Assembly: GCA_965223795.1 (NCBI GenBank)
Contig: CBDCXL010000002.1
Span: forward strand, 70,105-134,104
DNA from: Nitrospinales bacterium
Lineage (GTDB): Bacteria > Nitrospinota > Nitrospinia > Nitrospinales > VA-1
Reading direction: 5' to 3'
DNA length: 64,000 bases
Part shown: piece after piece, positions 971-46,096 of the stretch
Layout of the letters: each line of letters opens with the position of its first letter
Numbering within the stretch: position 1 is the first letter of the stretch
The notes under the pieces: model-generated
The model's database searches: none
The model's input: only the letters and a program-made list of their open reading frames with translations
What the model was told of the DNA's origin: nothing
Program-made: the position numbers and the translations under genes

Positions 971-2236
971 TCAGGAATCGCTTGCGAATTCTTTCAATGT
1001 GAGGGATTTGAGATAGGCGAGCAGGTCCGCCACGTCCTGCACTTCGAGCAGGTCCACAAAATTGCCCGGCATCATCGAGATCTTCTGGGTCTTGAATTTT
1101 TTGATGTCGGCTTTGCGGATGTAGAGTTCGTTGCCTTCCTTGTCGATGATGTCCAGTCCCTGATCGTCTTCCAGCAGCTTGATCCCGGTGATGAATTTGC
1201 GTTCCTTGGTCAGGATGAGAACCGTGGCGTATCCCGCGGTGATGACGGCTTTCGGATCGAGCAGCGATTCAAGCAGAAAGCCGGGCGTGCGGCTGCTGCC
1301 GATGTGGCTGAGGTCGGGACCGATCTCGCCGCCCTTGCCGTCCACCCGGTGGCACTTGGAACAGTAGACCGTGCCATCCGGATCGAAAAACATCTCACGG
1401 CCTCGCTCGGCGTCCCCCGGCGTGTTGAGATACGGCTGCCAGTCCTCGGGAACCGGTTCCTCTTCCGGCAGCAGGCTGTTGAGATACGCGGCGATGGCGC
1501 GGGCATCCTCCGTCTCCAGAGACAGATCCGGCATGCGCGTTTCGGTTTTATACGCCTGCGGATGGGTGACCCAGGCGTACACCCATTCGGGGCTGTAATA
1601 AAAGCCGGCGCGGGTCAGCTCCGGTCCGACCTTGCCGCCCTCTTCCCCGACCCGGTGACAGGCGAAGCAGCTTTTTTTCTTTTTGAACAATTTTTCGCCG
1701 CGCTTCAGGATTTCCGCATCGCTTTCCGCTTTTGCCAGCCACTCCGAGAACGCCTTGAGCTGCTCTTCGGAAACTGCCTCGTGCCGCGGCCGTTCCGTGT
1801 CCACGCCCTGCGGCAGGTTGACCGGATGATTGTTTTCTGTGGCCAAACTGCGTATGTAGGCCACCAGGGCCCAGATCTCGGCCTGCGACAGCGTGCTGCC
1901 AAACGGCGGCATCAGGTGGGACTTGCGCACGCCCGCGCCGCCTTTATGAATCACGCGAAATATCTGGTGATTGGTTTTTTTGCGCTGGAACTTCGGGTGG
2001 GACAGTTCTGCGGGCTCTTTATCGAGGTATTCGGCGTTGTAGCCGTCGCCGTCGCCGTGAATCCCGTGGCAGTGGGCGCAGAATTTCTGGAAGAGCCGCT
2101 TGCCCTGTTTCACCAGGTAGCGCGGGGTCTGCTTCTGCGACTGGATGGCGGCGTCGTCTCCATTGGCCCAAATGGGCGCTGCACTCAAAAACACCGTGCA
2201 CCCCAACACGAAGCAAAGCAGGCTCGTTCTCATCAA
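971..2236 (-). CDS. secreted tri-haem c-type cytochrome
   Basis: N-terminal signal peptide. Three CxxCH motifs (CAHCH, CFACH, CSKCH), the last two each followed by GPxL. C-terminal domain ends ...MMPGNF...LLAYLKSL. Confidence 0.85.
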   Translation of the reverse strand: MMRTSLLCFVLGCTVFLSAAPIWANGDDAAIQSQKQTPRYLVKQGKRLFQKFCAHCHGIHGDGDGYNAEYLDKEPAELSHPKFQRKKTNHQIFRVIHKGGAGVRKSHLMPPFGSTLSQAEIWALVAYIRSLATENNHPVNLPQGVDTERPRHEAVSEEQLKAFSEWLAKAESDAEILKRGEKLFKKKKSCFACHRVGEEGGKVGPELTRAGFYYSPEWVYAWVTHPQAYKTETRMPDLSLETEDARAIAAYLNSLLPEEEPVPEDWQPYLNTPGDAERGREMFFDPDGTVYCSKCHRVDGKGGEIGPDLSHIGSSRTPGFLLESLLDPKAVITAGYATVLILTKERKFITGIKLLEDDQGLDIIDKEGNELYIRKADIKKFKTQKISMMPGNFVDLLEVQDVADLLAYLKSLTLKEFASDS

Positions 2237-2356
2237 TTCTGAATCGGTTTTGGGTTATTGCGTTGAATTTCTGGAATGATATCTCAATTCACCGGCAGAT
2301 TCATTAAAAGAATCGGCGCTGGAAACGGTTTTTACGCTCCGGGTGCGCCTGAAAGC

Positions 2357-2393
2357 AAAAAAAAAGCAAGGGGACCGCATAGGGTCCCCTTGC
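2357..2393 (-). terminator. rho-independent terminator downstream of MCO copy A
   Basis: Minus strand reads GCAAGGGGACC-ctatgc-GGTCCCCTTGC followed by a T9 run, 25 nt after the stop. Confidence 0.75.
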
Positions 2394-2417
2394 CTCGTTG
2401 CTTCGGTTGTTTCAGAA

Positions 2418-5400
2418 CTAGCGGTTCATGGACAACCTTTCCTCCCCGATCGCAGGAGCGGTTTCGGCTTTTTTGCCGGAGCCGTCGCCCTTGTTCAGAG
2501 GCAGGATGGACTGCTCGCCCTGAGGCAGCACTTTGAAGTAACCCCACTGACCTGCCTGCTGATAAGGCGTTCTCGCATTCAGCCACAGGTAGGTGCCGGG
2601 ATTCCTGTAAGTGCCGCCGGCGGTGAAGAAGGCCTGGATGTACTCGCCGCCGCCGAACTCTTCGACGTCGATCATGTCAGAGCCTTCCTGCATGATGTGG
2701 CGGCGCCACTGATGGCCGTCCAGGTTGAACATCTGGTTCTGCTCGTTGTGCGCACCGAACACGTTGATCATCACGCGGTCGCCGGCATGTGCCTTGAGCA
2801 CCGGCGTCGCGGGATCGCTGTCCGCTGCCACGCAGGGCGTGAAGATATTGCCCAGCTCACAACCTTCATCCTCGCGATACGTCCACGGCTCCAACCGGTA
2901 GTTGACGCCGGTCAGCCCCGCCACGTTCTGCAGGTACGGCATGAACGAGGTGCCGAGGATGTTGTCCTCATCCTGGAAGTACAGAGCGAAATCGCGGTAG
3001 TTCTCGAGATGCTCGTTGCCAGGATAGGTTTTGTCGACGATCACGTCCGCTTTCCAGGAGTTGCCGAGCGAGATGTCCTTGCCGGTCTCCGGATCGCGGT
3101 ACACCGAGCCGCGCGGCCCGATGATGATCGCGCCGTACATGCCGTCGCGAACGTTGGTCGTCAGGTTGCCGAAATCCCACAGCAACGCGCCGTTCAGACC
3201 GTAGTCCGGATGGGCGTAGTAGGTGTAGGTCTTCGACTTGCCGGGAGCAACAGTCTGATCGCCGGGATTGTTCCCCACGTTGATCCCCTGGGAATCCAGC
3301 GGATCGAACGCCACGTTGTTCGCGTGCAGGGACGCGTTCCCTTCTTTCAGACGGTTGGTCAGCTTGATCTTGATGCAGTCGCCGATGTTGGCGCGAATGG
3401 TCAGAGGATGCGGCATCGCACCGTCGTCGGCGGCTTTACTCACTTCACCCTCGAGCGCGAAGATCTTGGCGTTGGCGTTCGCGAGCAACAGCTTGCGCTC
3501 GAAATCCACCTCGATCTCGTCTTCGGCGTTGGGGTTGAACTTCAGCGCCTTGTTGATGGCGACCACGCTGAAATTCTTAACCGGTGCGCCTTTCGGGCAC
3601 AGGGTCTTTTTGGCTTTCTTCGCAAAGTCCCGGTTGCTCGGGAGCACTTTCAGGTCCTTCTGCAGCTTGTCGTGGACCCGGATGATGCCCCAGCTTCCTT
3701 CGGACAGATGCGATGTTCTGCCGTCGTAGTACAGGTAGTCGCCGGCCATCTGCTGGTATCCACCAGCGGTGGTTGCCAGGTCGTACCGTTCCGCGATGCC
3801 CACATGCAGTGCGTTGGTGACGCGGGAGTCGCGGTCATACCGTTCCGGCCGGTAGCCGTGGCCGGAAACCACCCAGGTGTGGGTCTCGTTCATCATGCCG
3901 TGCAGCACACGGAACATGATGTTGTCACCCACATAGGCGCGCAGCATCGGCGTCACAGGATCGCCATGCACCTTGCTGCTGAACAGCTTGGAGGCGTCCT
4001 TGTTGGCTCTCAACCGCGAGGACAAAGAAGCCGCCCGGAAGTTGAAGCCGCCGCCCGTGGTGTGCGTGCCGCCGTTCAGATGCGGGAAGGCCACTTCCAG
4101 CATGGTATCCGGCATCTGGAACGAAATGGACTGACCGGCGGCAATGGCGTTCTTTCGGGACAGGCCCGGAGGATTGCCCTTGCTCACCAGCTGCGCGGTG
4201 TGCGGCACGGTGTCGTGCAATTGTGCCACCAGTTCACGGAAACTGCCGTTGCGCCCGTAAGCGAAAGGCTCGGACCCGTGAATGTCGGCGACCGGACCGC
4301 TGCGGATCTCTTTACCCGTTTCAGGATCGTGATACGTGGATCCCCAGGGCTCGACGATCGTCGATCCGATGCCGCCGTGCGGCCAGGTGGTCGCGCCGAA
4401 CGCGTGGTCGTGCCAGAACACGAGACCCAGGTCCGCATCGACCCACCAGCGGTACCGCACGTACTCGGTGGTCACGATTTCACCTTTCTTGTGGGCGTGC
4501 TTCATGCCCTCGGTGAAGGTGATCTTGTACTTGCCATCCTTCGCGAACGCCTTGTTGGGATCGGGACTGATGGATTTGATCCAGCGCGCGTCCTTGCCGT
4601 TGGGCACCTCGATGCCGACGATGATGTCCGCACCGACGTGGAACGGGGTCGCGCCTTTCGCCATCTCGATCTCAACCACGGTGTCGCCCGGCTTGGTGGC
4701 CTTGAGCACCTTGGCGTTCATCGGGACCGGCATGCCGACATGGTGGCCGTCCTTCATCTTCTTGCTGAACTGCGTGTAGGGTCTCATGGACTGATCGTAC
4801 GAGAACCCGGAAATCACGCCGTCGGAGGCCTGGTTGTCGAACTGGAAGAAATGCGGATGGATGTTCAACTTCGACATCTGGAAGTTGGTGAAGTCGTCGT
4901 CGTTCCATTCGCTGGAAAGCAGCAGGTCCACGCAGTCATACACGTTGGCGCGGATGACCAGCGGGATCGCTTTCTTGGGATCGGCCTTGACTTCCGCCAT
5001 GTCCTCGTCGATCACGTAGATGAGACCGTACTTGTCGATGACGGGAGCGGTGTCTCCCACAGCGGGAGTCAGCTCGATCGGAGTGTTGATGAAATGCAGG
5101 TTGTACTGCTTTCTGCCCGCGCCTTTGGGGCACAGGCTCCAGCGGCCCTGCTCACCCGGTTTCGCGGGAGCGGTGCTCTCCACGTTGGGACCGGTTTTGC
5201 CGCTGCCCGATTCGGTATCGAGGATCTCGTCGTCCGGCATCAGGTGGAACGGCTCCAGCCAGGGAGCGCCGCCGTGATGGCGTGCGAACGGTACCCGCTT
5301 GCCGAAATGCGGCGTCATGTGCGGCCACGCCAGCTTCCCGGTTTGGGGCGCGAACTGAATCGGGTGCCGCTTGCCGGGATGCGGGGATTTGTACTTGGCA

Positions 5401-7373
5401 ACCTTGTAGGTCGTCTCGGGTTCAGACAGAGCCGTATTGCCTTTCCAGCCGTAATCCCAGACGGAACCGTCGTAGGCCAGGATCTGGCCTTTTTCATCGT
5501 CGGTGTGGCCGGGCTTGCCCTGAGGCGGCAGCATGTACTTCACCCAGTCCTTGACGTTGACGACCGGCGCTTTCTTCGTCCAGTCGCTCTTGCCTTTGTC
5601 GACGATCTTGAACTTCTTGCCGAACCAGTCCATCGTCTTGCCGACCAGCTTGTCGGAACTCACGCCTTTGGGAATGCGTCCCTTACGATCGGGAAGCTCC
5701 TGCAGCGGACGCATGACGTCGGTGCTGCCGAACGGGTAGTTGCCATCCTGCAGCGTGTTGTACACGCGCCAGTAACCCCACATGCCGGCAACGTAATGAT
5801 GCGCGACGTGGCAGTGGAACAGAAAGTCGCCCGCCAGACGCTGGCACAGGCCGGAACCGCACTCGGTCTCAAGGTCCAGCGCTTCGGAAGGACCGATGAC
5901 TTCCACGTCGACGCGGTCGGTGGTCGTGCGCACGACCGGGTACTTGACCGGGCCGTTGTAGGCCGCGGTGATCAAACTGTCGATACCCGGTTCCCGCTTG
6001 GGTGAACGGGTCCAGCGGATGGATCCGCCATGCGGATGATGCGAGTGGAACACTTCGCCGCCGCCGTGGATCAGGCGGAACTTCGCCGGATCGCCCAGGT
6101 AGGACCGGGGGATCGTGGTCGGTGCGTCGGCAAAGGTGTAGGAGCTGTACGACAACGACTCATCCTCGTAGTGGAACATCTTTTCCTGTACTGCGAGGTT
6201 GTTGATGCCGAACGGCTCACTGCGATAGTTCATCGCGCGGGCAGAAGGACGGTACGCGTCGGTCTGCGGATCGCGCTGCGGAATCATCTCGCCGTGACGG
6301 TTCAGCGGACGGAAAGACTCGTCACCGACTTCGTGGTAGAACAGCACGAATTCGCGGAAGTCCTTGTCCTCGTCGTTGGCGATCATCGCCATCCAGCCGG
6401 ATTCCAGCGGACCGCCGGTCCACGGATCCAGATACCTGGAACCTTTGGGCTCGACGATGAACGCGCCGATCAGACCCAGCGAGGAAGGATCGCGGCCGGC
6501 ATGACTCTGGATCATGTGGCTGCCTTCCTGCTCGTCGATGGGAATGAACCACTCGAAATCCTGCGATTCGCCGGTTTTGATGATGGCGCCGGGAGACGCA
6601 GCCGTCGCCGGTGCGCCGCTGGAGCTGATGATCATGGCGGAACCGTTGACCTGAAAGCCGATGTCTTCGTCCTCGACTTCATTGCGGACCTTGAAGCGCA
6701 CGCAGTCGCCCTGGTTGCCGCGGATGGTCAGGGGCTGAATGGCGTCGCCCTGAAGCCCCGTGGACACCATGCCCGGATCCAGCTCGTCTTCACGAGCCGC
6801 GGCGTTCTTTTCTTCTTCCTTGCGCACCTTGTCGACGTCCTTGGTGAGCACGTACATGTAGCCGGGATAGTAGTCGCCCCACTGGTTCAACGTGACCTCC
6901 ACGTTGATGGCGGTCACGTCATACGTCTTGACCGGTGCGGAGCTGGGGCAGTGCGCCCCTTTGTACACTTTATCCGCGGCTTCGGAAGGTCCCAGCAGAT
7001 AGCTCTGGCCGAGCTGATGCGCCGACCAGGAATCGTGAAAACCGCCTCCCGAGGATGCCGGCGCGGCGTGCTCTTTGAGCTTGCCCTGCAGGCGGTCCAT
7101 GAGCTTCATGAAGGTCTGGTTCATGCGCTCCTGCCGGTTCTCCATGCCGCTCATCATTTCCTCGGTGTTGACCTGCTGTTCCAGCTTCTTGAGCCAGGCC
7201 GGCTGGTCTACCGCGGGTCCGATGCTCGAGGGCTTGGGATGCATGGAATGATCCATCTTCATCTGTGCGCCTGCGGGAAGCCCCCATCCCAGGACCAGAA
7301 AGGCCAAGAGCGGAACCATCCAGATTCCCACGCTCAGGCCGCGCACCCGATTCGGAATTTGCCTTTGCTTCAT
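2418..7373 (-). CDS. giant (1651 aa) secreted multicopper oxidase, copy A; MofA/MnxG-size class
   Basis: AGGAGG RBS upstream of ATG 7373 and a Sec-type signal (..GLPAGA/Q). Met/His motif MKMDHSMH. Canonical HCHVAHHYVAGM at nt 5781-5816. HxH motifs HSHHPHGG, IHPH and WHDH. Three homologous modules. Confidence 0.9.
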   Translation of the reverse strand: MKQRQIPNRVRGLSVGIWMVPLLAFLVLGWGLPAGAQMKMDHSMHPKPSSIGPAVDQPAWLKKLEQQVNTEEMMSGMENRQERMNQTFMKLMDRLQGKLKEHAAPASSGGGFHDSWSAHQLGQSYLLGPSEAADKVYKGAHCPSSAPVKTYDVTAINVEVTLNQWGDYYPGYMYVLTKDVDKVRKEEEKNAAAREDELDPGMVSTGLQGDAIQPLTIRGNQGDCVRFKVRNEVEDEDIGFQVNGSAMIISSSGAPATAASPGAIIKTGESQDFEWFIPIDEQEGSHMIQSHAGRDPSSLGLIGAFIVEPKGSRYLDPWTGGPLESGWMAMIANDEDKDFREFVLFYHEVGDESFRPLNRHGEMIPQRDPQTDAYRPSARAMNYRSEPFGINNLAVQEKMFHYEDESLSYSSYTFADAPTTIPRSYLGDPAKFRLIHGGGEVFHSHHPHGGSIRWTRSPKREPGIDSLITAAYNGPVKYPVVRTTTDRVDVEVIGPSEALDLETECGSGLCQRLAGDFLFHCHVAHHYVAGMWGYWRVYNTLQDGNYPFGSTDVMRPLQELPDRKGRIPKGVSSDKLVGKTMDWFGKKFKIVDKGKSDWTKKAPVVNVKDWVKYMLPPQGKPGHTDDEKGQILAYDGSVWDYGWKGNTALSEPETTYKVAKYKSPHPGKRHPIQFAPQTGKLAWPHMTPHFGKRVPFARHHGGAPWLEPFHLMPDDEILDTESGSGKTGPNVESTAPAKPGEQGRWSLCPKGAGRKQYNLHFINTPIELTPAVGDTAPVIDKYGLIYVIDEDMAEVKADPKKAIPLVIRANVYDCVDLLLSSEWNDDDFTNFQMSKLNIHPHFFQFDNQASDGVISGFSYDQSMRPYTQFSKKMKDGHHVGMPVPMNAKVLKATKPGDTVVEIEMAKGATPFHVGADIIVGIEVPNGKDARWIKSISPDPNKAFAKDGKYKITFTEGMKHAHKKGEIVTTEYVRYRWWVDADLGLVFWHDHAFGATTWPHGGIGSTIVEPWGSTYHDPETGKEIRSGPVADIHGSEPFAYGRNGSFRELVAQLHDTVPHTAQLVSKGNPPGLSRKNAIAAGQSISFQMPDTMLEVAFPHLNGGTHTTGGGFNFRAASLSSRLRANKDASKLFSSKVHGDPVTPMLRAYVGDNIMFRVLHGMMNETHTWVVSGHGYRPERYDRDSRVTNALHVGIAERYDLATTAGGYQQMAGDYLYYDGRTSHLSEGSWGIIRVHDKLQKDLKVLPSNRDFAKKAKKTLCPKGAPVKNFSVVAINKALKFNPNAEDEIEVDFERKLLLANANAKIFALEGEVSKAADDGAMPHPLTIRANIGDCIKIKLTNRLKEGNASLHANNVAFDPLDSQGINVGNNPGDQTVAPGKSKTYTYYAHPDYGLNGALLWDFGNLTTNVRDGMYGAIIIGPRGSVYRDPETGKDISLGNSWKADVIVDKTYPGNEHLENYRDFALYFQDEDNILGTSFMPYLQNVAGLTGVNYRLEPWTYREDEGCELGNIFTPCVAADSDPATPVLKAHAGDRVMINVFGAHNEQNQMFNLDGHQWRRHIMQEGSDMIDVEEFGGGEYIQAFFTAGGTYRNPGTYLWLNARTPYQQAGQWGYFKVLPQGEQSILPLNKGDGSGKKAETAPAIGEERLSMNR
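2496..3602. repeat. near-identical block shared with 10416-11522 (third module of the MCO paralogues)
   Basis: Constant 7920-nt offset. By-eye alignment shows only scattered SNPs, and only 5 differences over ~369 aa. Identity ends abruptly at ~3600/11520. Confidence 0.85.
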
Positions 7374-7781
7374 AAATTACCTCCTGAATTGATAAATAAA
7401 ACTCAACAACCACTGCAACCGGCCTCAACGACCGGCCTTGAACTTAAATGCGTTTGGGGTTTCGAAATGATTCTGGCTGAATGGTCCTTTTTAAGAGGAG
7501 GCGACGGCCGCCTGATTCTGGAGAAGAGGACTGGGCTGGAGGCAGGTTGTTGAATTTCAACCTGTAACGTGAAGAGCGCAAACCCCGGCAAAAACACACC
7601 TCCCGATTTCCTCCCATTGAAGAACAATCAGTAAGGAAGATACGCCGGGATATGAATTATTCCCTCGACCGCCTTCTTTTTTGGGTTTTTTCAGGACAAA
7701 AACGGGGCGATGAATTCGTGCGTCCGGCGGGGCGGAAAAACCTTTCGCGGACGCCGATCGGTCCGCCGAAACGGCCTCAAA

Positions 7782-8372
7782 TCATTCCTGATTTATGGGA
7801 TGGGTGCGGTTTTCCGCATTGAACAGATCGGATTGCAATAGGTGCTGCTTGAGGTGGACCTTGGCGCGGGCCAGGCGAGACATGACGGTGCCGATGGGGA
7901 TGTCGAGTATATCGGCGATCTCTTTATAGGAGCGGTTTTCAAAGTAGAACAGGATGATGGGAAACTTGAGCCGTTCGTTGAGGGTGTCCATGGCCGTCTG
8001 CACCTTCTGCTTCAGCTCATTTTGAATGTATTCACTTTCAGGGTCCAGCGGCTGTTTGGTGTGCAGATTGTCGCAAACCGTGTCGAATTCCAGCTCCAGC
8101 CAGTTCTTTCTTTTTTTAACATCCTTGAGGAAAAGGTTCCTCATGATGGAAAACAGCCAGTACTTGCATTTATCCCGATCCTTGAGCTGGTGGAAATTTT
8201 TCAGAGCGTAGTAGAAGGTCTCCTGAACCAGGTCCTCCGCCTGATCTTTTTCCCGGCACAGACGGTAGGCCGCCCCCAGAATAATGGGGCCGTTGGGGTG
8301 CAGATGATTGCTGTAATCATCCAGCTCCGCGCTGCTTTTGAGGTTCTCTTTAAAACGGATTAAAAATTCCAA
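7782..8372 (-). CDS. ECF-type RNA polymerase sigma-70 family factor
   Basis: Region 2 (DLVQETFYYALKNF...YWLFSIMRNLF) and region 4 HTH (YKEIADILDIPIGTVMSRLARAK). Probable TTG start. Confidence 0.85.
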   Translation of the reverse strand: MEFLIRFKENLKSSAELDDYSNHLHPNGPIILGAAYRLCREKDQAEDLVQETFYYALKNFHQLKDRDKCKYWLFSIMRNLFLKDVKKRKNWLELEFDTVCDNLHTKQPLDPESEYIQNELKQKVQTAMDTLNERLKFPIILFYFENRSYKEIADILDIPIGTVMSRLARAKVHLKQHLLQSDLFNAENRTHPINQE

Positions 8373-8727
8373 AGCCTGCGTCCCTGGTTCGGGCTCCCCT
8401 GACGAAAGCGCCCTCAGTTTTCAACCGATAGGGAATAATATATAAAATTCATTGTCTTTTAAAGGGAAGCTGTGCCCCGGCCCGGTCCCGATCTTCCCGC
8501 ATCCGATAAATCCCCGCGTCTCGGCCGTAAAACCGGTATTCACCGAGCTTCGAAACTGAAGACTCCCGGAATTCCCCAATTTCGGGAATCCACAAAAATG
8601 GTGTACACCTTCGGCCAGCCTTTGATAAAATTTTGGCTTGTGTCAAAAAGGGCCGTTCAGATGAATCGTTCCGGCCCGCCGGGAATCCAATACCGTATTG
8701 TGATGACAAACCGAGCCTGAAAGAACG

Positions 8728-9215
8728 ATGGATATCAGCAACGAAGAGCTTCTGCGGCTTTCCACCAAGATCGAACGCGATGGCGAGACCTTCTACATCG
8801 AGTTGGCCAAACACGTTCCCGATCCGGAAGTGAAAGAATTTCTTCTGGCCATGGCGAAGGAAGAAGCCAACCATGAAATGCAGTTCATGAGGATGCTCAA
8901 GGAAAAAGGGGATCAACAGTATGGCTGGGAAACCGACTCCTCCCTGCGCGCACTGATCGACGCTCAATACCAGACGGACATCTTCCCCCAGCTGGATGAA
9001 ATTTTCGAACAGATGCCCCGGTTTGAAGGAATCCAGAAAGCCATCGAATTCGCGATCGAAGCGGAAAAGATTTCGGCTGAGTTCTACGGCTGATGCAGAA
9101 AGCCTGCAAGGACATCAACACCAAAACCCTGCTCGTCCTTCTTGAAAGAGCGGAACAGGATCACCTGGACCGCATCGAGCAACTGAAAGAACGCTACCTC
9201 ACGCAATCGAGCTGA
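8728..9215 (+). pseudogene. ferritin-like (rubrerythrin-type diiron four-helix bundle) protein, reading frame broken at ~9091
   Basis: The 121-aa ORF carries the first ExxH (EEANH) and ends AEFYG-TGA. The second ExxH helix (LLERAEQDHLDRIEQLKERY) continues in another frame from 9093 to 9215. Confidence 0.55.
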
Positions 9216-9287: not shown

Positions 9288-9321
9288 AAAAAAAAGCAGT
9301 ACCGGCCGAAACCGGTACTGC
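9288..9321 (-). terminator. rho-independent terminator downstream of the cupredoxin-like gene
   Basis: Minus strand reads GCAGTACCGG-loop-CCGGTACTGC followed by a T8 run. Confidence 0.7.
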
Positions 9322-9342
9322 TCGAATTGAACCGATACTTAT

Positions 9343-10146
9343 TTACTTCGCGGCCAGCTCAAAATCCTGCTTAGCTTCGCCGTCGGCCACGGTCACTTCC
9401 TTGGTCACTTCTCCCACATAGGGATGCCAGGCGGTGACTTTGTACTTGCCGGCGGGGATGCCGTCGATCTTGAACGTGCCGTCTTTGCCGCTCACAGCAT
9501 AGTACGGATTCCAAACCACGCGGGCGTCGGCTTCCATGAAGTTGTGCTGATCGCACTGCAGGAAGAAATGCTTGTCTTTCTTTTTCTTCATGCGCTTGAA
9601 GGATTTGGTGACGTCCGCCACGTCGCCTTTGGAGGGCAGCGGTTTGTTGAACAGGGTCTTCCGGCTCGCACCGACCACCGAGTAGCCGTGCGGGTTGTGC
9701 AGAATGTCCGGATCCTGATTGGTGATTTTCATCAATCCTTCTTTCATCCCTTTCGGCGTTTTCCGGGCAACGGAAACTTTCGGAAAAATATCGCAGTTTT
9801 TGAAATCAAAATTGATGGTCTCACCCGACCAGTCTTTGCCCTTTGCGATTTCCTCGATGAAGACAACCGTGTCGGTCAGCTTGCCACCGGGGGCCACGAC
9901 TTTATGCCGCGGGCGCATGTTGCCTTCCTTGGTGTCCGGATGCTGTGCGCAGAACTCAACATTTTTCCCTTTGCTCAGATCTTCCATGATCGGGGGAGGC
10001 GGATCGCCTTTCAACGTCACCACGCCCGTGATGGACCCCTTGCCCGGGGCGCCACCTTCATACTTTGCTTTTTTTGCGAAACTGGTTGACGCACCGAGGA
10101 CCAGTGCCAACGCGAACACGAGTACTCCCAACAATACTTTTTTCAT
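9343..10146 (-). CDS. secreted cupredoxin-like protein with C-terminal CarboxypepD_reg-like beta-sandwich (family often annotated 'methylamine utilization protein')
   Basis: Signal peptide. HNPH, then ~50 aa, then C-DQ-H-NF-M (amicyanin-like C-x2-H-x2-M spacing). Then NPYYAVSGKDGTFKIDGIPAGKYKVTAWHP. Confidence 0.6.
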   Translation of the reverse strand: MKKVLLGVLVFALALVLGASTSFAKKAKYEGGAPGKGSITGVVTLKGDPPPPIMEDLSKGKNVEFCAQHPDTKEGNMRPRHKVVAPGGKLTDTVVFIEEIAKGKDWSGETINFDFKNCDIFPKVSVARKTPKGMKEGLMKITNQDPDILHNPHGYSVVGASRKTLFNKPLPSKGDVADVTKSFKRMKKKKDKHFFLQCDQHNFMEADARVVWNPYYAVSGKDGTFKIDGIPAGKYKVTAWHPYVGEVTKEVTVADGEAKQDFELAAK

Positions 10147-10281
10147 GCCTTCGATCCCTCCTTAGGTTGAACGAAACATTAATAACACCCACCAGCGAGT
10201 GATTGGGGTCTATCCAATGACGCTTGATCGTACCGGGAGCCGATTATTATAGCACTGAATGGACAATCCTCAAGTGTCATC

Positions 10282-10321
10282 AAAAAAAGAAAAAGGGGGC
10301 CCTGTGAAGAGGCCCCCTTTT
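10282..10321 (-). terminator. hairpin terminator downstream of MCO copy B (T/A runs on both sides)
   Basis: AAAAGGGGGCC-ctgtgaaga-GGCCCCCTTTT, flanked by an A-run on the left and a T-run on the right. Confidence 0.7.
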
Positions 10322-10337
10322 GTTTTTACGCCATTTA

Positions 10338-13300
10338 CTACTTGTTCATGGACAGCCTGTCATCCCCCACCGGTTCGGTGGAAGCGGCCTTATTGGGCTT
10401 GGCCGCCCCCTGTCCGAGAGGCAGGATGGACTGCTCGCCCTGAGGCAGCACTTTGAAGTAACCCCACTGACCTGCCTGCTGATAGGGGGTCCTCGCATTC
10501 AGCCACAGGTAGGTGCCGGGATTCCTGTAAGTGCCGCCGGCGGTGAAAAAGGCCTGGATGTACTCGCCGCCGCCGAACTCTTCGACGTCGATCATGTCAG
10601 AACCTTCCTGCATGATGTGGCGGCGCCACTGATGGCCGTCCAGGTTGAACATCTGGTTCTGCTCGTTGTGCGCACCGAACACGTTGATCATCACACGGTC
10701 GCCGGCATGTGCCTTGAGCACCGGCGTCGCGGGATCGCTGTCCGCTGCCACGCAGGGCGTGAAGATATTGCCCAGCTCACAACCTTCATCCTCGCGATAC
10801 GTCCACGGCTCCAACCGGTAGTTGACGCCGGTCAGCCCCGCCACGTTCTGCAGGTACGGCATGAACGAGGTGCCGAGGATGTTGTCCTCATCCTGGAAGT
10901 ACAGAGCGAAATCGCGGTAGTTCTCGAGATGCTCGTTGCCAGGATAGGATTTGTCGACGATCACGTCCGCTTTCCAGGAGTTGCCGAGCGAGATGTCCTT
11001 GCCGGTCTCCGGATCGCGGTACACCGAGCCGCGCGGCCCGATGATGATCGCGCCGTACATGCCGTCGCGAACGTTGGTCGTCAGGTTGCCGAAATCCCAC
11101 AGCAACGCGCCGTTCAGACCGTAGTCCGGATGGGCGTAGTAGGTGTAGGTCTTCGACTTGCCGGGAGCAACGGTCTGATCGCCGGGATTGTTCCCCACGT
11201 TGATCCCCTGGGAATCCATGGGATCGAACGCCACGTTGTTCGCGTGCAGGGACGCGTTCCCTTCCTTCAGACGGTTGGTCAGCTTGATCTTGACGCAGTC
11301 GCCGATGTTGGCGCGAATGGTCAGAGGATGCGGCATGACGTCGTCGTCCGCGGCTTTGCTCACTTCACCCTCGAGCGCGAAGATCTTGGCGTTGGCGTTC
11401 GCGAGCAGCAGCTTGCGCTCGAAATCCACCTCGATCTCGTCTTCGGCGTTGGGGTTGAACTTCAGCGCCTTGTTGATGGCAACCACACTGAAATTCTTAA
11501 CCGGTGCGCCTTTCGGGCAAACTTCTTTGCGGACTTTCTTTTTGAACTCCGCTTCCTCGTTGCCGGGAAGCTCTTTCAGGTCCTTCTGCAGCTTGTCGTG
11601 GACCCGGATGATGCCCCAGCTGCCCTCGGAAAACTTCGAGGTGCGGCCGTTGTAATAGAGGTAATCACCCGCCATGCCCTGGTAGCCGCCGGCGGTGGTC
11701 GCCAGGTCGTACCGTTCCGCAATACCGATGTGGATGGTATTGGTGACACGGGAATCACGGTCGTAGCGCTCGGGGCGGTAACCGTGACCGGAAACGACAA
11801 AGGTATGGGTCTCGTTCTGCATTCCATGAAGCAGACGGAACACAACGCTGTCACCCACGTACGCTCTCAGCATCGGCGTGGAGGGTTCCCCATGCACCTT
11901 GCTGCTGAACAGCTTGGAAGCGTCCTTGTTGTTGTTCAGCCGCGCCTTCAGAGAAGAGGCCCGGAAGTTGAAGCCGCCGCCTGTGGTGTGCGTGCCGCCG
12001 TTCAGAAACGGGAAGGCCACTTCCAGCATGTCGTCCGGCATCTGAAAGGAGATGGACTGACCGGCTGCGATGGCGTTCTTTCGGGACAGGCCCGGAGGAT
12101 TGCCCTCGGACACCAGCTGCGCGGTGTGCGGCACGGTGTCGTGCAATTGTGCCACCAGTTCGCGGAAACTGCCGTTTCTGCCGTACGCAAACGGTTCGGT
12201 GCCGTGAATGTCGGCGACCGGACCGCTGCGGATCTCTTTACCCGTCTTGGGATCGTGATACGTGGATCCCCAGGGTTCGACGATCGTCGATCCGATGCCG
12301 CCGTGCGGCCAGGTGGTCGCGCCGAACGCGTGGTCGTGCCAGAACACCAGCCCGACGTCCGCGTCGACCCACCATCGGTACCGCACGTACTCGGTGGTCA
12401 CGATTTCACCTTTCTTGTGGGCGTGCTTCATGGCTTCGGAAAAGGTGATCTTGTACTTGCCATCCTTCGCGAACGCCTTGTTGGGATCGGGACTGATGGA
12501 TTTGATCCAGCGCGCGTCCTTGCCGTTGGGCACCTCGATGCCGACGATGATGTCCGCACCGACGTGGAACGGGGTCGCGCCTTTCGCCATCTCGATCTCA
12601 ACCACGGTGTCGCCCGGCTTGGTGTCTTTCAAAAGCTTGGCGTTCATCGGGACCGGCATGCCGACATGGTGGCCGTCCTTCATCTTCTTGGTGAACTGCC
12701 TGTAGGACCTCATGGACTGATCGTAGGAGAATCCGGAGATCACGCCGTCGGAGGCCTGGTTGTCGAACTGGAAGAAATGCGGATGGATATTGACTTTCGA
12801 CATCTGGAAGTTGGTGAAGTCGTCGTCGTTCCATTCGCTGGTCAGCAGCACGTCCACACAATCGTAGACGTTCGCCCGGATCACCAGCGGATACGCGATT
12901 TTCGGATCCGCTTTGACCGCCGCCATGTCCTCGTCGATCACGTAGATGAGACCGTACTTGTCGATGACGGGCGGGGTTTTACCGATGGCGTCGGAAAGCT
13001 GAATCGGCGTGTTGATGAAGTGCAGGTTGTACTGCTTGCGTCCCGCACCCCGCGGGCACAGGCTCCAGCGTCCGTGCTCACCCGGTTTGGCGGGTGCGCT
13101 GCTCTCCACGTTGGGCCCCGTAAGACCGCTGCCCGATTCGGACGCCAGGATCTCGTCGTCCGGCTTCAGGTGGAACGGCTCCAGCCAGGGAGCGCCGCCG
13201 TGATGGCGTGCGAACGGTACCCGCTTGCCGAAATGCGGCGTCATGTGCGGCCACGCCAGCTTCCCGGTGAGCGGAGAAAACTGAATCGGATGCCGCTTGC

Positions 13301-15281
13301 CGGGATGCGGAGATTTGTATTTCGGCCATTTGACGATGGTTTCCCTTTCCGAGAGAGCGGTGGTGCCTTTCCAGCCGTAATCCCAGACGGAACCGTCGTA
13401 GGCGAGGATCTGGCCTTTCAGGTCGTCGGTGTGGCCGGGCTTGCCCTGAGGCGGCAGCATGTACTTCACCCAGTCCTTGACGTTGACGACCGGCGCTTTC
13501 TGGGTCCAGTCGCTGTTGCCTTTGCCGACGATCTTGAACTTCTTGCCGAACCAGTCCATCGTCTTGCCGACCAGCTTGTCGGAACTCACGCCTTTGGGAA
13601 TGCGTCCCTTACGATCGGGAAGCTCCTGCAGCGGACGCATGACGTCGGTGCTGCCGAACGGGTAGTTGCCGTCCTGAATCGTGTTGTACACACGCCAGTA
13701 GCCCCACATGCCGGCGACGTAGTGATGCGCGACGTGGCAGTGGAACAGAAAGTCGCCCGCCAGACGCTGGCACAGGCCGGAACCGCACTCGGTCTCAAGG
13801 TCCAGCGCTTCGGAAGGACCGATGACTTCCACGTCGACGCGGTCGGTGGTCGTGCGCACGACCGGGTACTTGACCGGACCGTTCCATGCGGCCGTGGTCA
13901 GGTTTTCCAGACCGGGCTCGCGCTTGGGTGAACGGGTCCAGCGGATCGTGCCGCCATGCGGATGGTGCGAGTGGAACACTTCGCCGCCGCCGTGGATCAG
14001 GCGGAACTTCGCCGGATCGCCCAGGTAGGACCGGGGGATCGTGGTCGGCGCATCGCCGAAGGTGTAGGAACTGTAAGACAGGGATTCGTCTTCAAAATGG
14101 AATTTCTTTTCCTGTACTGCAAGGTTGTTGATGCCGAACGGCTCACTGCGGTAGTTCATCGCGCGGGCAGAAGGACGGTACGCGTCGGTCTGCGGATCGC
14201 GCTGCGGAATCATCTCGCCGTGACGGTTCAGCGGACGGAAAGACTCGTCACCCACTTCATGATAGAACAGGGCGAACTCGCGGAAGTCTTTCGCTTCGTC
14301 GTTGACGATCATCGCCATCCAGCCGGATTCCAGCGGACCGCCGGTCCACGGATCCAGATACCTGGAACCTTTGGGCTCGACGATGAACGCGCCGATCAGA
14401 CCCAGCGAGGAAGGATCGCGGCCGGCATGACTCTGGATCATGTGGCTGCCTTCCTGCTCGTCGATGGGAATGAACCACTCGAAATCCTGCGTTTCGCCGG
14501 ACGGGATGATCGCACCGGGAGACGCGGCCGTCGCCGGAGCGCCGGTGGAGCTGATGATCATGGCGGAACCGTTGACCTGAAAACCGATGTCTTCGTCCTC
14601 GACCTCGTTGCGGACCTTGAAGCGCACGCAGTCGCCCTGGTTGCCGCGGATGGTCAGAGGCTGAATCACATCGCCCTGAAGACCATTGGTGAGAGAACCG
14701 GGATCGAGTTCGTCTTCACGCGCTTCGGCGTTTCTTTCTTCATCTTTACGAACCTGATCGACGTTCTTGGTGAGCACGTACATGTAGCCGGGATAATAGT
14801 CGCCCCACTGATTCAACGTGATCTCGACGTTGATCGCCGTGATGTCGTAAGTCTTGACCGGCGCGGAGCTGGGGCAGTGCGCCCCTTTGTACACTTTATC
14901 CGCGGCTTCGGAAGGTCCCAGCAGATAGCTCTGGCCGAGCTGATGCGCCGCCCAGGAATCGTGGAAACCGCCGCCCGCGGATGCCGGAGCGGCGTGCTCC
15001 TTCAGTTTGCCCTGGAGCTTGTCCATCAACCGCATGAACGTGTTGTTCATCTGCTCCTGGCGGTTGTCCATGCCGCTCATCATTTCCTCGGTGTTGACCT
15101 GCTCTTCCAGCTTCTTGAGCCAGGCCGGCTGGTCTACCGCGGAGTTGATGCTTGCGGGTTTAGCGTGCATGGAATGATCCATCTTCATTTGCGCGCCTGC
15201 GGGAAGCCCCCATCCCAGCACCAGAAAGGCCGCCGCGAGCGCATACCCAATTATCCACCTCTTTTTGACATGAAACTGCAT
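10338..15281 (-). CDS. giant (1647 aa) secreted multicopper oxidase, copy B
   Basis: Start moved to ATG 15281 (MQFHVKKRW...), which has GGAGGA 6 nt upstream. Same motifs and module order as copy A, with a high-identity paralogue alignment along the whole length. Confidence 0.9.
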   Translation of the reverse strand: MQFHVKKRWIIGYALAAAFLVLGWGLPAGAQMKMDHSMHAKPASINSAVDQPAWLKKLEEQVNTEEMMSGMDNRQEQMNNTFMRLMDKLQGKLKEHAAPASAGGGFHDSWAAHQLGQSYLLGPSEAADKVYKGAHCPSSAPVKTYDITAINVEITLNQWGDYYPGYMYVLTKNVDQVRKDEERNAEAREDELDPGSLTNGLQGDVIQPLTIRGNQGDCVRFKVRNEVEDEDIGFQVNGSAMIISSTGAPATAASPGAIIPSGETQDFEWFIPIDEQEGSHMIQSHAGRDPSSLGLIGAFIVEPKGSRYLDPWTGGPLESGWMAMIVNDEAKDFREFALFYHEVGDESFRPLNRHGEMIPQRDPQTDAYRPSARAMNYRSEPFGINNLAVQEKKFHFEDESLSYSSYTFGDAPTTIPRSYLGDPAKFRLIHGGGEVFHSHHPHGGTIRWTRSPKREPGLENLTTAAWNGPVKYPVVRTTTDRVDVEVIGPSEALDLETECGSGLCQRLAGDFLFHCHVAHHYVAGMWGYWRVYNTIQDGNYPFGSTDVMRPLQELPDRKGRIPKGVSSDKLVGKTMDWFGKKFKIVGKGNSDWTQKAPVVNVKDWVKYMLPPQGKPGHTDDLKGQILAYDGSVWDYGWKGTTALSERETIVKWPKYKSPHPGKRHPIQFSPLTGKLAWPHMTPHFGKRVPFARHHGGAPWLEPFHLKPDDEILASESGSGLTGPNVESSAPAKPGEHGRWSLCPRGAGRKQYNLHFINTPIQLSDAIGKTPPVIDKYGLIYVIDEDMAAVKADPKIAYPLVIRANVYDCVDVLLTSEWNDDDFTNFQMSKVNIHPHFFQFDNQASDGVISGFSYDQSMRSYRQFTKKMKDGHHVGMPVPMNAKLLKDTKPGDTVVEIEMAKGATPFHVGADIIVGIEVPNGKDARWIKSISPDPNKAFAKDGKYKITFSEAMKHAHKKGEIVTTEYVRYRWWVDADVGLVFWHDHAFGATTWPHGGIGSTIVEPWGSTYHDPKTGKEIRSGPVADIHGTEPFAYGRNGSFRELVAQLHDTVPHTAQLVSEGNPPGLSRKNAIAAGQSISFQMPDDMLEVAFPFLNGGTHTTGGGFNFRASSLKARLNNNKDASKLFSSKVHGEPSTPMLRAYVGDSVVFRLLHGMQNETHTFVVSGHGYRPERYDRDSRVTNTIHIGIAERYDLATTAGGYQGMAGDYLYYNGRTSKFSEGSWGIIRVHDKLQKDLKELPGNEEAEFKKKVRKEVCPKGAPVKNFSVVAINKALKFNPNAEDEIEVDFERKLLLANANAKIFALEGEVSKAADDDVMPHPLTIRANIGDCVKIKLTNRLKEGNASLHANNVAFDPMDSQGINVGNNPGDQTVAPGKSKTYTYYAHPDYGLNGALLWDFGNLTTNVRDGMYGAIIIGPRGSVYRDPETGKDISLGNSWKADVIVDKSYPGNEHLENYRDFALYFQDEDNILGTSFMPYLQNVAGLTGVNYRLEPWTYREDEGCELGNIFTPCVAADSDPATPVLKAHAGDRVMINVFGAHNEQNQMFNLDGHQWRRHIMQEGSDMIDVEEFGGGEYIQAFFTAGGTYRNPGTYLWLNARTPYQQAGQWGYFKVLPQGEQSILPLGQGAAKPNKAASTEPVGDDRLSMNK
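10416..11522. repeat. near-identical block shared with 2496-3602
   Basis: See the partner repeat at 2496-3602. Confidence 0.85.
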
Positions 15282-15510
15282 TTCATATCCTCCCATTGAT
15301 AACACACATAAAATGCATGCGGTTCGCACGCCGTTCCCTTGGAAAATAGGGGCGGTTTGCGAACCTCTCTTTTTTTCCGCGCAGCCTCCCAACTGGCGGT
15401 ACGACTTTTTATTTAAAGGATTTGGCTTCGAAAGATCCTTGAATTTCGAGTTTTGGATTGAAAAAGCGGGATTTTAACCTCAAATAAAAGACCGAGAACT
15501 CTACCACACA

Positions 15511-16881
15511 TTAATTTTCCTGTACAAGTGCCAAATGGAACTTTTTTTCATCCCGCTTCAACAGCAAGAAAACCGGTCCTCCCCTGGGAATTTTGTGGAC
15601 GATATTCTCATAATGCTTGCGGCTGGTGACGACTTCCCCGTTCACGGACAGGATTCGGTCCCCCGATTGCAGCCCCTTGGCTTCGGCGGAACTGCCGGGG
15701 AGCACCCGGCTGATGCCGAGCCCCTCCAGGTTTTCATCGAGCTCGTCCGCCGCATCCATCACTTCGATGCCCAGAACATGGGTCGCTTCTCCGGCTTCCT
15801 TATTAAAGGAAGCGCGTGCGTGGATTTCCTTTTTCTGCTGTTCCAGCTTGACCGGGATCATCTGCGACTGTCCGTCGCGCAGGATGTCCAGGTGGACCGT
15901 CTGGCCGGGAGAAATCACGCCGATGATGCGGATCATGCGAGCCGGCGAGTTGACCGGCACGCCGCCGATGCGCAGGATGACGTCGCCCACCTTGAGCCCC
16001 GCCTTATGGGCGGGATCGCCTTCGAACACGGCGTTGACCATCACCCCCTCGCCTTCCTTGAGCAGTTCCCAGTCGTGGATCATTTCCGGAGTCACAGGCT
16101 CGATGCCCACGCCCAGCCAGCCGCGCCGCACTTCCCCGAACTCGCGCAATTGTGAGACGACGCGCTGCACCATGTTGGAGGGAATCGCGAAACCGATGCT
16201 CTGGGCGTAATTGATGATGGCGGTGTTGATGCCGATGACTTCTCCGTCCAGGGTTATCAGCGGGCCGCCGGAGTTTCCGGGATTGATCGAGGCATCGGTC
16301 TGGATGAAATCCTCGTAGCGGGACAGGTTGATGTTTTCCCGGTTGAGGCCGCTGATGATGCCGAAGGTCATGGTGTCGTTCAAACCGTAGGGATTGCCGA
16401 CGGCTACCACCATCTGGCCCACTCTGGCCTGGGTCGAATCGGCGAATTTCACCTCAGGCATGGGAATTTCAATTTCAACGCGAACCAGCGCCAGATCGGT
16501 GTCTTCGTCGGTGCCCAGCACGTCGCCGATTTTTTCCTTTCCTCCGAAGAAGGTGACCTGCACTTTATCGGAATTCCGGACGACATGGCTGTTGGTGACG
16601 ATCAGCCCTTTAACGCCGTCGATGATGACTCCCGCTCCGGCGTTGGAGGGCCGTCCGCGCAGTCCTCTGGAGGGCTGCACGACCTGGGAAGGCGGCACGT
16701 ACGGAGAGATGCTGACCACGGCGGGTCTCACCCTGTCCGCCAGGGTAATGAGAGCGGACTGCATTTCCCGGAGCAGGGTCAGGCCTTTGGATTCGGCGTG
16801 GGCCGTGCCTGCCAGCAACACAAAATAAAGAATGAAACCGAGGATCGGGGTGCGAAGTCTGAATCGGGCTGGAGCGTTCAT
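15511..16881 (-). CDS. degP: periplasmic serine endoprotease, DegP/HtrA family (two PDZ domains)
   Basis: Signal peptide. Trypsin-like core with TDASINPGNSGGPL. Two PDZ-like C-terminal segments. Confidence 0.9.
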   Translation of the reverse strand: MNAPARFRLRTPILGFILYFVLLAGTAHAESKGLTLLREMQSALITLADRVRPAVVSISPYVPPSQVVQPSRGLRGRPSNAGAGVIIDGVKGLIVTNSHVVRNSDKVQVTFFGGKEKIGDVLGTDEDTDLALVRVEIEIPMPEVKFADSTQARVGQMVVAVGNPYGLNDTMTFGIISGLNRENINLSRYEDFIQTDASINPGNSGGPLITLDGEVIGINTAIINYAQSIGFAIPSNMVQRVVSQLREFGEVRRGWLGVGIEPVTPEMIHDWELLKEGEGVMVNAVFEGDPAHKAGLKVGDVILRIGGVPVNSPARMIRIIGVISPGQTVHLDILRDGQSQMIPVKLEQQKKEIHARASFNKEAGEATHVLGIEVMDAADELDENLEGLGISRVLPGSSAEAKGLQSGDRILSVNGEVVTSRKHYENIVHKIPRGGPVFLLLKRDEKKFHLALVQEN

Positions 16882-46093: not shown

Positions 46094-46096
46094 TTG

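Follow-up and report, generated by a model that had tools for sequence, protein, structure and literature searches.

What do the giant multicopper oxidases (MCOs) of marine nitrite-oxidising bacteria oxidise, and how are two copies deployed in one genome? We addressed this question in a 64,000-nucleotide stretch of DNA from a member of the Nitrospinales (hereafter the window; contig CBDCXL010000002.1 of assembly GCA_965223795.1, positions 70,105 to 134,104), which carries two such genes among genes for a cytochrome c, an extracytoplasmic function (ECF) sigma factor, a ferritin-like diiron protein, a cupredoxin and a DegP-family protease. Nitrospinota are described as the main marine nitrite oxidisers (PMC3578206). 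An initial annotation, made from the sequence of the window, had presented the locus as a candidate module for periplasmic metal oxidation. In this respect it was anticipated by Lücker et al. 2013, who had already published both the cluster and the manganese hypothesis (PMC3578206). They described a periplasmic multicopper protein of Nitrospina gracilis that is highly conserved in Candidatus (Ca.) Nitrospira defluvii and resembles the Mn-oxidising enzyme of Bacillus SG-1, and placed it in a conserved cluster associated with nitrite oxidoreductase (NXR), together with an alternative NxrC, cytochromes c, cupredoxin-like proteins and a bd-like oxidase (PMC3578206). Their proposal was that the MCO makes Mn(III) from Mn(II) and so defends an organism without superoxide dismutase and catalase against reactive oxygen species (ROS) (PMC3578206).

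In the Pacific metaproteomes later reported by Saunders et al. 2022, the MCO, which they named MnxG and whose activity they described as unconfirmed, ranks second in abundance among the Nitrospinae oxidoreductases (PMC9477243). In the field the protein rises and falls with NxrA where O2 is low and with catalase where the water is oxygenated (PMC9477243). Because the MCO is so abundant in these metaproteomes, its substrate matters for the copper demand of the ocean and for the coupling of the nitrogen and manganese cycles. The view taken in the initial annotation, that the substrate is not readable from the sequence, agrees with the literature (PMC9477243, PMC11995701). What the locus does provide is a set of handles on the problem, namely two differently wired MCO copies, a predicted two-gene regulon that includes the diiron protein, and a conserved cupredoxin as a candidate donor. 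The kind of protein and the hypothesis are known, and what seems to be new is that one MCO copy is predicted to be switched on by an adjoining stress sigma factor. In the literature that we searched there was no account of a recurrent two-copy MCO cassette or its concerted evolution, of an ECF-type promoter common to one MCO copy and the diiron gene, of an explicit copper-ligand map of domains 2 and 3 for this MCO, or of a conserved core that shrinks to the MCO and a type-1-copper protein.

The two MCO genes and their relatives

Both giant open reading frames (ORFs) of the initial annotation were recovered on the minus strand, at 2418-7373 and 10338-15281. The first, MCO_B, encodes an MnxG-like six-domain multicopper oxidase of 1651 aa and adjoins the ECF sigma gene; the second, MCO_A, encodes 1647 aa and adjoins the DegP gene. 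The MCO_A frame could be extended to a TTG at 15392. Given that the ATG at 15281 is preceded by a GGGAGGA ribosome-binding site and matches the starts of 40 orthologues in alignment, the start originally assigned to the 1647-aa protein is correct. MCO_A and MCO_B share 92% identity over 1630 residues. Homologues numbered 797 at E <= 0.001 among the candidates examined, and all 120 that were listed had E = 0; the MCO genes are real, far above chance. Long antisense ORFs at 2343-6005 (plus strand, 1220 aa) and 10320-13931 (plus strand, 1203 aa) are not genes and are produced by the high GC content at third codon positions of the real MCO genes.

Each MCO starts with a hydrophobic signal peptide of the Sec type, which has ...LPAGAQ at its end, and no twin-arginine motif was found in the signal peptide of either. 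The peptide is followed by the Met/His motif MKMDHSMH that had been noticed initially. The motif is indeed present in both copies, but its histidines are only 75-85% conserved in the family, as judged from an alignment of 112 full-length MCO homologues from both phyla in which it occurs (Nitrospinota and Nitrospirota). About nine methionines fall within residues 38-92 of both copies, and most of the N-terminal methionines are lineage-specific. At the other end of the protein, a tail conserved in the family (...SILPL...LSMxx; window positions 2418-2500 and 10338-10420) might serve as a ligand for a PDZ domain or as a sorting signal; a PDZ protease is encoded beside the MCO genes.

The best matches to the MCOs come from Nitrospinota at 73-86% identity, including N. 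gracilis 3/211, Ca. Nitrohelix and Ca. Nitronauta, followed by Nitrospirota at approximately 60% (Nitrospira, and Ca. Manganitrophus at approximately 61%). Yu et al. 2022 reported that Ca. Manganitrophaceae encode 'two novel MCOs' each. Clustering at 50% collapses the whole clade to one representative. Beyond it, the nearest sequences (38-46% identity) belong to giant, uncharacterised proteins from Planctomycetota, Anaerolineae and Nitriliruptorales. Three MCO contigs with 80-88% identity (L010, L050 and L062) belong to metagenome-assembled genomes (MAGs) labelled as a Poseidoniales archaeon, Acidobacteriota and Verrucomicrobiales, and are probably mis-binned Nitrospinota contigs. The MCO of the window belongs to the same family as the putative MCO described in N. 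gracilis and N. defluvii, the N. gracilis protein (P0050) being 80% identical to it.

Copper sites of the MCOs

To map the copper ligands we used the alignment of 112 homologues. In MCO_B the type 1 (T1) copper ligands are H443, C521, H526 and M531, each at least 95% conserved, and the T1 motif HCHxxxHxxxxM is present and reads FHCHVAHHYVAGM. Eight histidines, again each at least 95% conserved, make up the ligands of the trinuclear cluster: H446 and H448 (HSHHPH), H520 and H522 (HCH), H839 and H841 (HPH), and H988 and H990 (HDH). Domain 2 thus carries H443-x2-H446-x-H448 together with H520-C521-H522-x3-H526-x4-M531, and domain 3 carries H839-x-H841 and H988-x-H990. Domains 1, 4, 5 and 6 are without a conserved HxH pair or a T1 Cys-His-Met set in these homologues, such cysteines as they conserve belonging to disulphide-like pairs. 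The predicted arrangement is one T1 site in domain 2 and one trinuclear cluster shared by domains 2 and 3. Conservation of the copper ligands in orthologues, which the initial annotation had put forward as a check, extends to all 12 positions.

Since the single ligand sets are confined to domains 2 and 3 and the motifs align with those of MnxG, the predicted site layout is MnxG-like and not ceruloplasmin-like. In ceruloplasmin the trinuclear cluster lies between domains 1 and 6, and T1 sites are found in domains 2, 4 and 6. The analogy drawn initially with ceruloplasmin therefore fails on site layout. It does extend to the overall architecture, since ceruloplasmin and coagulation factors V and VIII share with the MCO a triplicated two-domain cupredoxin plan; in the MCO, disulphide-like cysteine pairs (C142/C224, C748/C814 and C1259/C1333) mark the odd-numbered domains of the triplicated unit.

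Profile and structure searches pointed in the same direction. Cu-oxidase_3 was the sole Pfam family to score above its cut-off on the MCOs (60.9 and 60.2 bits; cut-off 21), Cu-oxidase (PF00394) reaching 19.6 bits, under its cut-off. When the PDB was searched by sequence with phmmer, the sole strong match was MnxG of Bacillus PL-12 (9bxa; E 9e-98), which aligned in seven collinear stretches. A Foldseek search with an AlphaFold2 (AF2) model of pLDDT 55, used for fold ranking only, also placed 9bxa_A first (E 3.7e-39, TM 0.44), with ceruloplasmin and factors V and VIII forming a second tier (E 1e-11 to 1e-8). These searches, which the initial annotation had called for, identify a secreted six-domain MCO whose nearest characterised relative in sequence and fold is the Mn(II) oxidase MnxG.

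The MnxG of Bacillus sp. PL-12 and SG-1 resembles the MCO in its six cupredoxin domains and is its best match in both sequence and fold. The HxxHxH, HCH and two HxH motifs of the two proteins align, and the MnxG T1 ligand H340 corresponds to MCO H526, which in the alignment falls on the alanine of the deposited MnxG H340A mutant structure. There are also differences. The MCOs are approximately 430 aa longer than the 1217-aa Bacillus enzyme, the extra length being made up of an N-terminal Met-rich region of approximately 100 aa, a 200-aa linker (546-747) and an insert of approximately 100 aa in domain 3. Bacillus MnxG is a spore-coat enzyme, whereas the Nitrospina MCOs are Sec-exported and periplasmic. 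A second relative tied to Mn(II) oxidation is the large MCO of the Pseudomonas putida MnxG type (NCBIfam NF041487), to which three stretches matched (E 7e-35).

An ECF sigma factor beside MCO_B

The ECF sigma factor named in the initial annotation is encoded at 7782-8372 on the minus strand. The protein of 196 aa consists of regions 2 and 4 only (Sigma70_r2 and r4_2) and scores 85.8 bits against TIGR02937, above the family cut-off of 42.9; the solved structures nearest to it are Mycobacterium tuberculosis SigH and SigE and Bacillus subtilis SigW. When 22 sigma-to-MCO_B intergenic regions were aligned, one conserved block was apparent, GGGAATAA-N13-(C)GTATCT, located 164-303 nt before the start codon. 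In the window this ECF-type promoter motif reads GGGAATAA-N13-GTATCT and lies at 7638-7664 on the minus strand, approximately 265 nt upstream of the MCO_B start codon. A second copy, GGGAATAATATATAAAATTCATTGTCT, lies at 8431-8457 on the plus strand and faces the ferritin-like gene. The pattern GGGAATAA-N14-TNTCT has exactly two matches in the whole window, which flank the sigma gene, and 0.00 in shuffled sequence.

A relaxed form of the motif was found upstream of MCO_B in 20 of the 22 regions, against a background of 0.05 per kb, and 13 of 22 loci have it in front of the ferritin-like gene. It was found in none of 41 DegP-to-MCO_A regions, where no other promoter motif is conserved either. 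ECF sigma factors such as SigH, SigR and SigE typically recognise a GGAAT-type -35 element. The present sigma factor resembles those of SigH/SigR/SigE-type regulons both in having regions 2 and 4 only and in having putative promoters with this -35 element; it differs from them in that no adjacent anti-sigma gene was found, in that its own gene is not preceded by the motif, and in that the apparent regulon consists of an MCO and a diiron protein. Given that the conserved motif is shared and flanks the sigma gene, the sigma factor probably drives MCO_B and the ferritin-like gene. This qualifies the 'envelope-stress' setting that had been proposed for the locus: an ECF sigma factor and DegP are both present, but the genes that the sigma factor is predicted to drive are MCO_B and the one for a cytoplasmic diiron protein, and DegP is not among them.

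The ferritin-like gene, which encodes a ferritin/rubrerythrin-like diiron four-helix bundle, occupies 8728-9215 on the plus strand and is split by a 1-nt deletion near 9091. The initial annotation was right that such a gene is present (8728-9093, plus strand; Rubrerythrin E 7.7e-10 for the fragment), but what it had recorded is frameshifted. The window reads GGC TGA TG where relatives read GGC CTG ATG (9085-9100), so that the frame ends as ...FYG-stop and continues in the next frame as MQKAC...LLERAEQDH... at 9093-9215, a segment that holds the fourth helix and the second ExxH. The homologues read ...FYGLMQE.C...ExxH... without a break over 159-167 aa, save one at a contig end. In the 29 uninterrupted homologues the E...ExxH...E...ExxH set lies in one polypeptide, whereas in the window the second ExxH lies in the other frame. 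A full-length homologue scores 45.6 bits against the Rubrerythrin profile and covers positions 1-136 of 137, and the nearest solved structures are 2fzf and TM1526, a ferritin-like diiron-carboxylate protein. A 172-aa ORF opposite this gene (8449-8967, minus strand) has no family match and looks like antisense noise.

The term 'module' also needs qualification. As a conserved gene set it holds within Nitrospinota, but the set is not one operon, each MCO ending in its own strong terminator. Intrinsic terminators on the minus strand follow MCO_B (2363-2396; a 14-bp stem with 8 GC pairs and a T-run, 22 nt past the stop codon), MCO_A (10291-10321; a 12-bp stem and a T-run, 17 nt past the stop codon) and the cupredoxin gene (9294-9323; a 13-bp stem and a T-run). 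Because of these strong terminators, the genes are best described as a row of separate transcription units. A candidate sigma-70-like promoter precedes the cupredoxin gene (10246-10273, minus strand; TTGAGG-16-TATAAT with an extended TG, 10/12 matches, a consensus match only). A riboswitch or other structured leader in the 5' untranslated region of MCO_B, approximately 260 nt long, was considered and rejected (fold z-score +0.41, no Rfam match); an Rfam scan of the window returned one tRNA and nothing else.

Conservation of the cassette and evolution of the two copies

We surveyed the neighbourhoods of 72 MCO loci from genome assemblies searched with the proteins of the window. The Nitrospinota cassette runs in the order DegP, MCO_A and cupredoxin protein, then the ferritin-like gene (one or two copies, in the opposite orientation) and the ECF sigma gene, then MCO_B and the tri-haem cytochrome c, and, in the opposite orientation, a cytochrome c-EB_dh gene and two more cupredoxin-type genes. 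The two-copy form, in which the ferritin-like gene, sigma gene and MCO_B occur together, is found in at least 12 loci (L003, L005, L006, L025, L028, L029, L034, L047, L053, L055, L060 and L071); in many MAGs the two MCO copies lie on separate contigs, with breaks inside the gene. ECF sigma and ferritin-like genes were found only in loci with two MCO copies, and the single-MCO loci of N. gracilis and several others are without both. The gene order of N. gracilis is otherwise the same, with DegP, MCO, cupredoxin protein and tri-haem cytochrome c followed by a convergent alternative NxrC gene. The present genome therefore differs from N. gracilis, which has one copy and neither gene, in having two MCO copies with the ferritin-like and ECF sigma genes between them.

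Two otherwise single-copy loci contain a 3' MCO fragment between the cupredoxin and tri-haem cytochrome genes (L036:16281-17900 and L059:15958-16365). It is probably left over from an MCO_B that was deleted, and points to two copies as the ancestral state. In a separate case, MAG OFTM191 carries three tandem MCO units (L005:549-22254), the block of cupredoxin, ferritin-like, ECF sigma and MCO genes being repeated whole with the promoter motif in each repeat.

In a neighbour-joining tree of 57 full-length MCO proteins, A and B copies group by lineage and not by position. The nucleotide identity of MCO_A and MCO_B in the window is a mosaic that ranges from 79% to 99.7% in 100-codon windows, and the synonymous divergence (dS) is lowest in domain 6 (0.05) and highest in domain 4 (0.54). 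The ratio of nonsynonymous to synonymous divergence (dN/dS) is 0.20 overall and 0.10 in domain 2. Together, the clustering by lineage, the identity mosaic, the spread of dS and the low dN/dS indicate an old tandem duplication whose copies have been kept alike by gene conversion in patches, purifying selection acting on both.

Synteny in related genomes, another of the proposed checks, gave a divided answer. The cassette is conserved across Nitrospinota, but across phyla only the pair of MCO and cupredoxin is, the shared part in Nitrospirota being an MCO followed by one to three cupredoxin-type genes. Two Nitrospirota loci have further neighbours of their own. In Ca. Manganitrophus sp. SA1 (L075:7248-14594) a CopD-like/DUF4149 membrane protein precedes the MCO-cupredoxin pair and a hemerythrin follows it, a second, unrelated diiron protein beside this MCO family. 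In a member of the Nitrospiraceae (L076:13136-16058) the pair is followed by two genes of the FGE-sulfatase family. Members of this family (nirV) are also found with nirK, the gene for copper nitrite reductase.

Candidate electron donors

These data allow us to propose a whole explanation, which we hold tentatively and at a little short of an even chance, in which the MCO is an MnxG-like periplasmic O2-reducing enzyme of oxidative-stress defence, with Mn(II) as its likeliest donor, encoded by one basal and one sigma-induced copy. The enzyme would accept electrons one by one at the T1 copper and pass them to O2 at the trinuclear cluster, forming water. On the strength of its homology with MnxG, the donor-side reaction would most likely be Mn(II) to Mn(III), as in the ROS-defence proposal made by Lücker et al. 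2013. MCO_A, behind DegP and without the ECF motif, would probably be the basal copy, and MCO_B and the divergent ferritin-like gene would probably be induced, as an oxidative-stress regulon, by the ECF sigma factor whose gene separates them. Having a basal copy and another that responds to stress is compatible with the field pattern, which is a correlation only; the apparently different regulation of the copies could account for a protein that goes with NxrA at low O2 and with catalase in oxygenated water.

Several observations weigh against this explanation. To our knowledge, MCO substrates are unpredictable from sequence. The identity of the MCO to Bacillus MnxG is only approximately 20% in the fold alignment, and whole-protein scores against the P. 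putida-type family NF041487 are 119.4 and 110.3 bits against a cut-off of 3100, so that the MCOs are not its equivalogs. The AF2 model of residues 140-1250, made from a 29-sequence alignment, is poor (pLDDT 55, with domain 2 at 22-40), and for this reason the geometry of domains 2 and 3 rests on sequence alignment. Bacillus MnxG acts as an MnxG-E3F3 complex (PMC5622069). No conserved gene of MnxE/F size (approximately 12 kDa) is present in the cassette among 74 loci, although MnxE and MnxF sequences were not searched directly; the sole small conserved gene is that of the ferritin-like diiron protein. On the regulatory side, the ferritin-like gene is frameshifted here, being either a pseudogene or the product of an assembly indel, and the ECF motif, with the pattern used, is missing upstream of the ferritin-like gene in 9 of the 22 loci. 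An anti-sigma gene was not found; the gap between the sigma gene and MCO_B holds only short unconserved ORFs, and no conserved ORF follows the sigma gene on its strand. The promoter function of the motif, its pairing with the sigma factor and the induction of the genes are read from motif conservation only. Finally, a 2025 study states that no member of the Nitrospinota or Nitrospira has yet been shown to oxidise Mn(II) (PMC11995701).

The cupredoxin protein (CupCPD; 9343-10146, minus strand) is a secreted protein of 267 aa that combines a cupredoxin with a CarboxypepD_reg domain and is predicted to be a type-1 copper electron carrier. H150, C198, H201 and M204 are invariant in 28 sequences (Cys198-x2-His201-x2-Met204), and the C-x2-H-x2-M loop and the upstream histidine are kept in Nitrospirota proteins of approximately 30% identity and in N. 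gracilis paralogues. A PDB sequence search with CupCPD gave no significant match. An AF2 model built from a 28-sequence alignment had a pLDDT of 89.6. In Foldseek its central domain matched amicyanin (TM 0.61-0.64 on the target, probability 1.0, with a modest E of 3e-3 to 1e-2) as well as auracyanin and the cupredoxin domain of NirK, and its C-terminal domain matched carboxypeptidase D domain II. The initial description of an amicyanin-spaced cupredoxin-like protein is thus backed by an invariant ligand set and an amicyanin-like predicted fold. CupCPD is the sole MCO partner conserved across Nitrospinota and Nitrospirota. A paralogue of 79% identity (P0129) is encoded elsewhere in the same genome, on the same 3.25-Mb contig but outside the window, and N. 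gracilis has two more distant CupCPD paralogues beyond its alternative NxrC gene.

The tri-haem cytochrome c (971-2236, minus strand), which comes after MCO_B in Nitrospinota loci, is secreted and has the three CxxCH motifs expected of it, together with three cytochrome c domains (Cytochrom_C E 6.6e-36, TIGR02603 E 2.5e-44). Its C-terminal half (residues 247-412) matches Kustd1711 (PDB 7zs0; E 3.5e-31), a dihaem cytochrome c of the anammox nxr cluster with haem potentials measured at approximately +350 mV and a proposed role in NXR electron transfer. Convergent with it is the 3' part of an alternative-NxrC-type gene (1-941, plus strand), a cytochrome c/EB_dh (haem b) fusion with a Pro/Glu-rich tail that is cut by the start of the window, its frame being open to base 1. 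The gene ending at 941 matches TIGR03477 (DMSO_red_II_gamma; E 5e-17) and EB_dh (E 1e-7), and what had been called an EB_dh/NxrC-type haem-b gene is accordingly the C-terminal part of such a fusion. N. gracilis has a 642-aa cytochrome c and EB_dh gene in the same position, a type that Lücker et al. 2013 named alt_NxrC (PMC3578206). In the Mn(II) explanation CupCPD and the Kustd1711-related high-potential cytochrome c would be plausible electron-transfer partners of the MCO.

The same carriers form the basis of a second explanation, in which the MCO is a periplasmic O2 reductase whose donors are proteins and not metal ions. Electrons would pass from nitrite and NXR through the alternative NxrC to the Kustd1711-like cytochrome, the cupredoxin or both, and from there to the MCO T1 copper and O2. 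Oxygen would be scavenged without the release of ROS, and an O2-sensitive autotroph would be shielded, with no energy conserved. Because the MCO-cupredoxin pair is conserved across phyla, as the only association kept from Nitrospinota to Nitrospirota, this is a serious alternative, though on balance we consider it doubtful. In its favour, the Nitrospinota cassette adjoins the alternative NxrC and a relative of the +350 mV nxr-cluster cytochrome, the apparent co-regulation with a diiron protein suits a response to O2 or ROS, and the MCO protein co-varies with NxrA in low-O2 water (PMC9477243). Yu et al. 2022, moreover, allow the Manganitrophaceae MCOs a part in Mn(II) lithotrophy only if their electrons reach a periplasmic carrier such as cytochrome c. 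However, every gene is transcribed on its own, and cupredoxin-type paralogues also occur near NXR without an MCO and may serve NXR instead. We also know of no characterised large MCO that has a cytochrome or cupredoxin as its main donor.

A bolder form of this explanation, which we regard as rather unlikely, would hold that the family is not a manganese oxidase at all but a protein-fed O2 reductase, to which CupCPD, as a dedicated partner, and a high-potential cytochrome would bring electrons from nitrite. In Nitrospinaceae an orphan ECF sigma factor would control the second copy together with the diiron protein, as an O2/ROS-protection regulon that can be induced, and the diiron protein would perhaps itself be the sensor or the anti-sigma factor. 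If the MCO were a protein-fed O2 reductase, a highly abundant mesopelagic copper enzyme would belong to the oxygen defence of nitrite oxidisers and not to the manganese cycle.

Ferroxidase activity, cuprous oxidase activity and lithotrophic Mn oxidation are less likely than both the Mn(II) stress-defence and the protein-fed explanations. A ferroxidase would convert periplasmic Fe(II) to Fe(III) in the manner of ceruloplasmin or Fet3p, for iron acquisition or the limitation of Fenton chemistry, given the high iron demand of NXR. The six-domain plan, the rank of ceruloplasmin as the next fold match after MnxG (E approximately 1e-11) and the apparent co-regulation of a ferritin-like gene with MCO_B would suit such an enzyme, as would the abundance of the MCO at the top of oxygen-deficient zones (PMC9477243), where Fe(II) would be expected. 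Nevertheless, the copper-site layout is unlike that of ceruloplasmin, to which the similarity is far below that to MnxG, the cassette is without an iron transporter, and the ferritin-like protein matches a rubrerythrin-type diiron-carboxylate family, measures 160-167 aa and is not a classical storage ferritin. We therefore consider a ferroxidase unlikely.

A cuprous oxidase of the CueO/PcoA kind, which would oxidise Cu(I) to Cu(II) in copper homeostasis with the Met/His-rich N-terminus capturing Cu(I), is slightly less probable still. It draws on MKMDHSMH and the N-terminal methionines of both copies, on a weak match to the CopA-type MCO model TIGR01480 (E approximately 3e-6) and on the CopD-like/DUF4149 gene upstream of the MCO in Ca. 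Manganitrophus. The incomplete conservation of the motif histidines and the lineage-specific nature of most of the methionines speak against it, as does the lack of copper efflux or chaperone genes in the Nitrospinota cassette, and the high basal abundance of the protein in the ocean (PMC9477243) is unusual for a copper-stress enzyme. Energy-conserving Mn(II) lithotrophy, in which the MCO would hand electrons from Mn(II) to a cytochrome or cupredoxin and into the respiratory chain, is the least probable and very unlikely: it has in its favour the approximately 61%-identical homologues of Ca. Manganitrophus and the haem and copper carriers that adjoin the MCO, but the T1 copper of an MCO delivers electrons internally, to the trinuclear cluster of the enzyme and from there to O2, nitrite oxidisers that are not known to grow on Mn possess the family just as much, and Yu et al. 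2022 favour Cyc2 and porin-cytochrome complexes and see no clear energy-conserving route via an MCO.

Other genes and features of the window

The DegP gene of the initial annotation is present at 15511-16881 on the minus strand and encodes a periplasmic HtrA/DegP-family serine protease with a trypsin domain (Trypsin_2) and two PDZ domains, all above Pfam cut-offs; against TIGR02037 it scores 380 bits, slightly under the cut-off of 416. A DegP gene lies upstream of MCO_A in 41 Nitrospinota loci. Among the ORFs scanned from 17 to 40 kb there are no genes for Cu, Mn or Fe transport; these ORFs are housekeeping genes and are largely syntenic with N. gracilis. Further along the window the GC content falls to 0.42-0.46 at 46000-48000 and 54000-56000, against a background of approximately 0.58, with a tRNA gene between the two stretches (50597-50670). 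The low-GC stretches and the tRNA (46-56 kb) may represent a horizontally acquired island.

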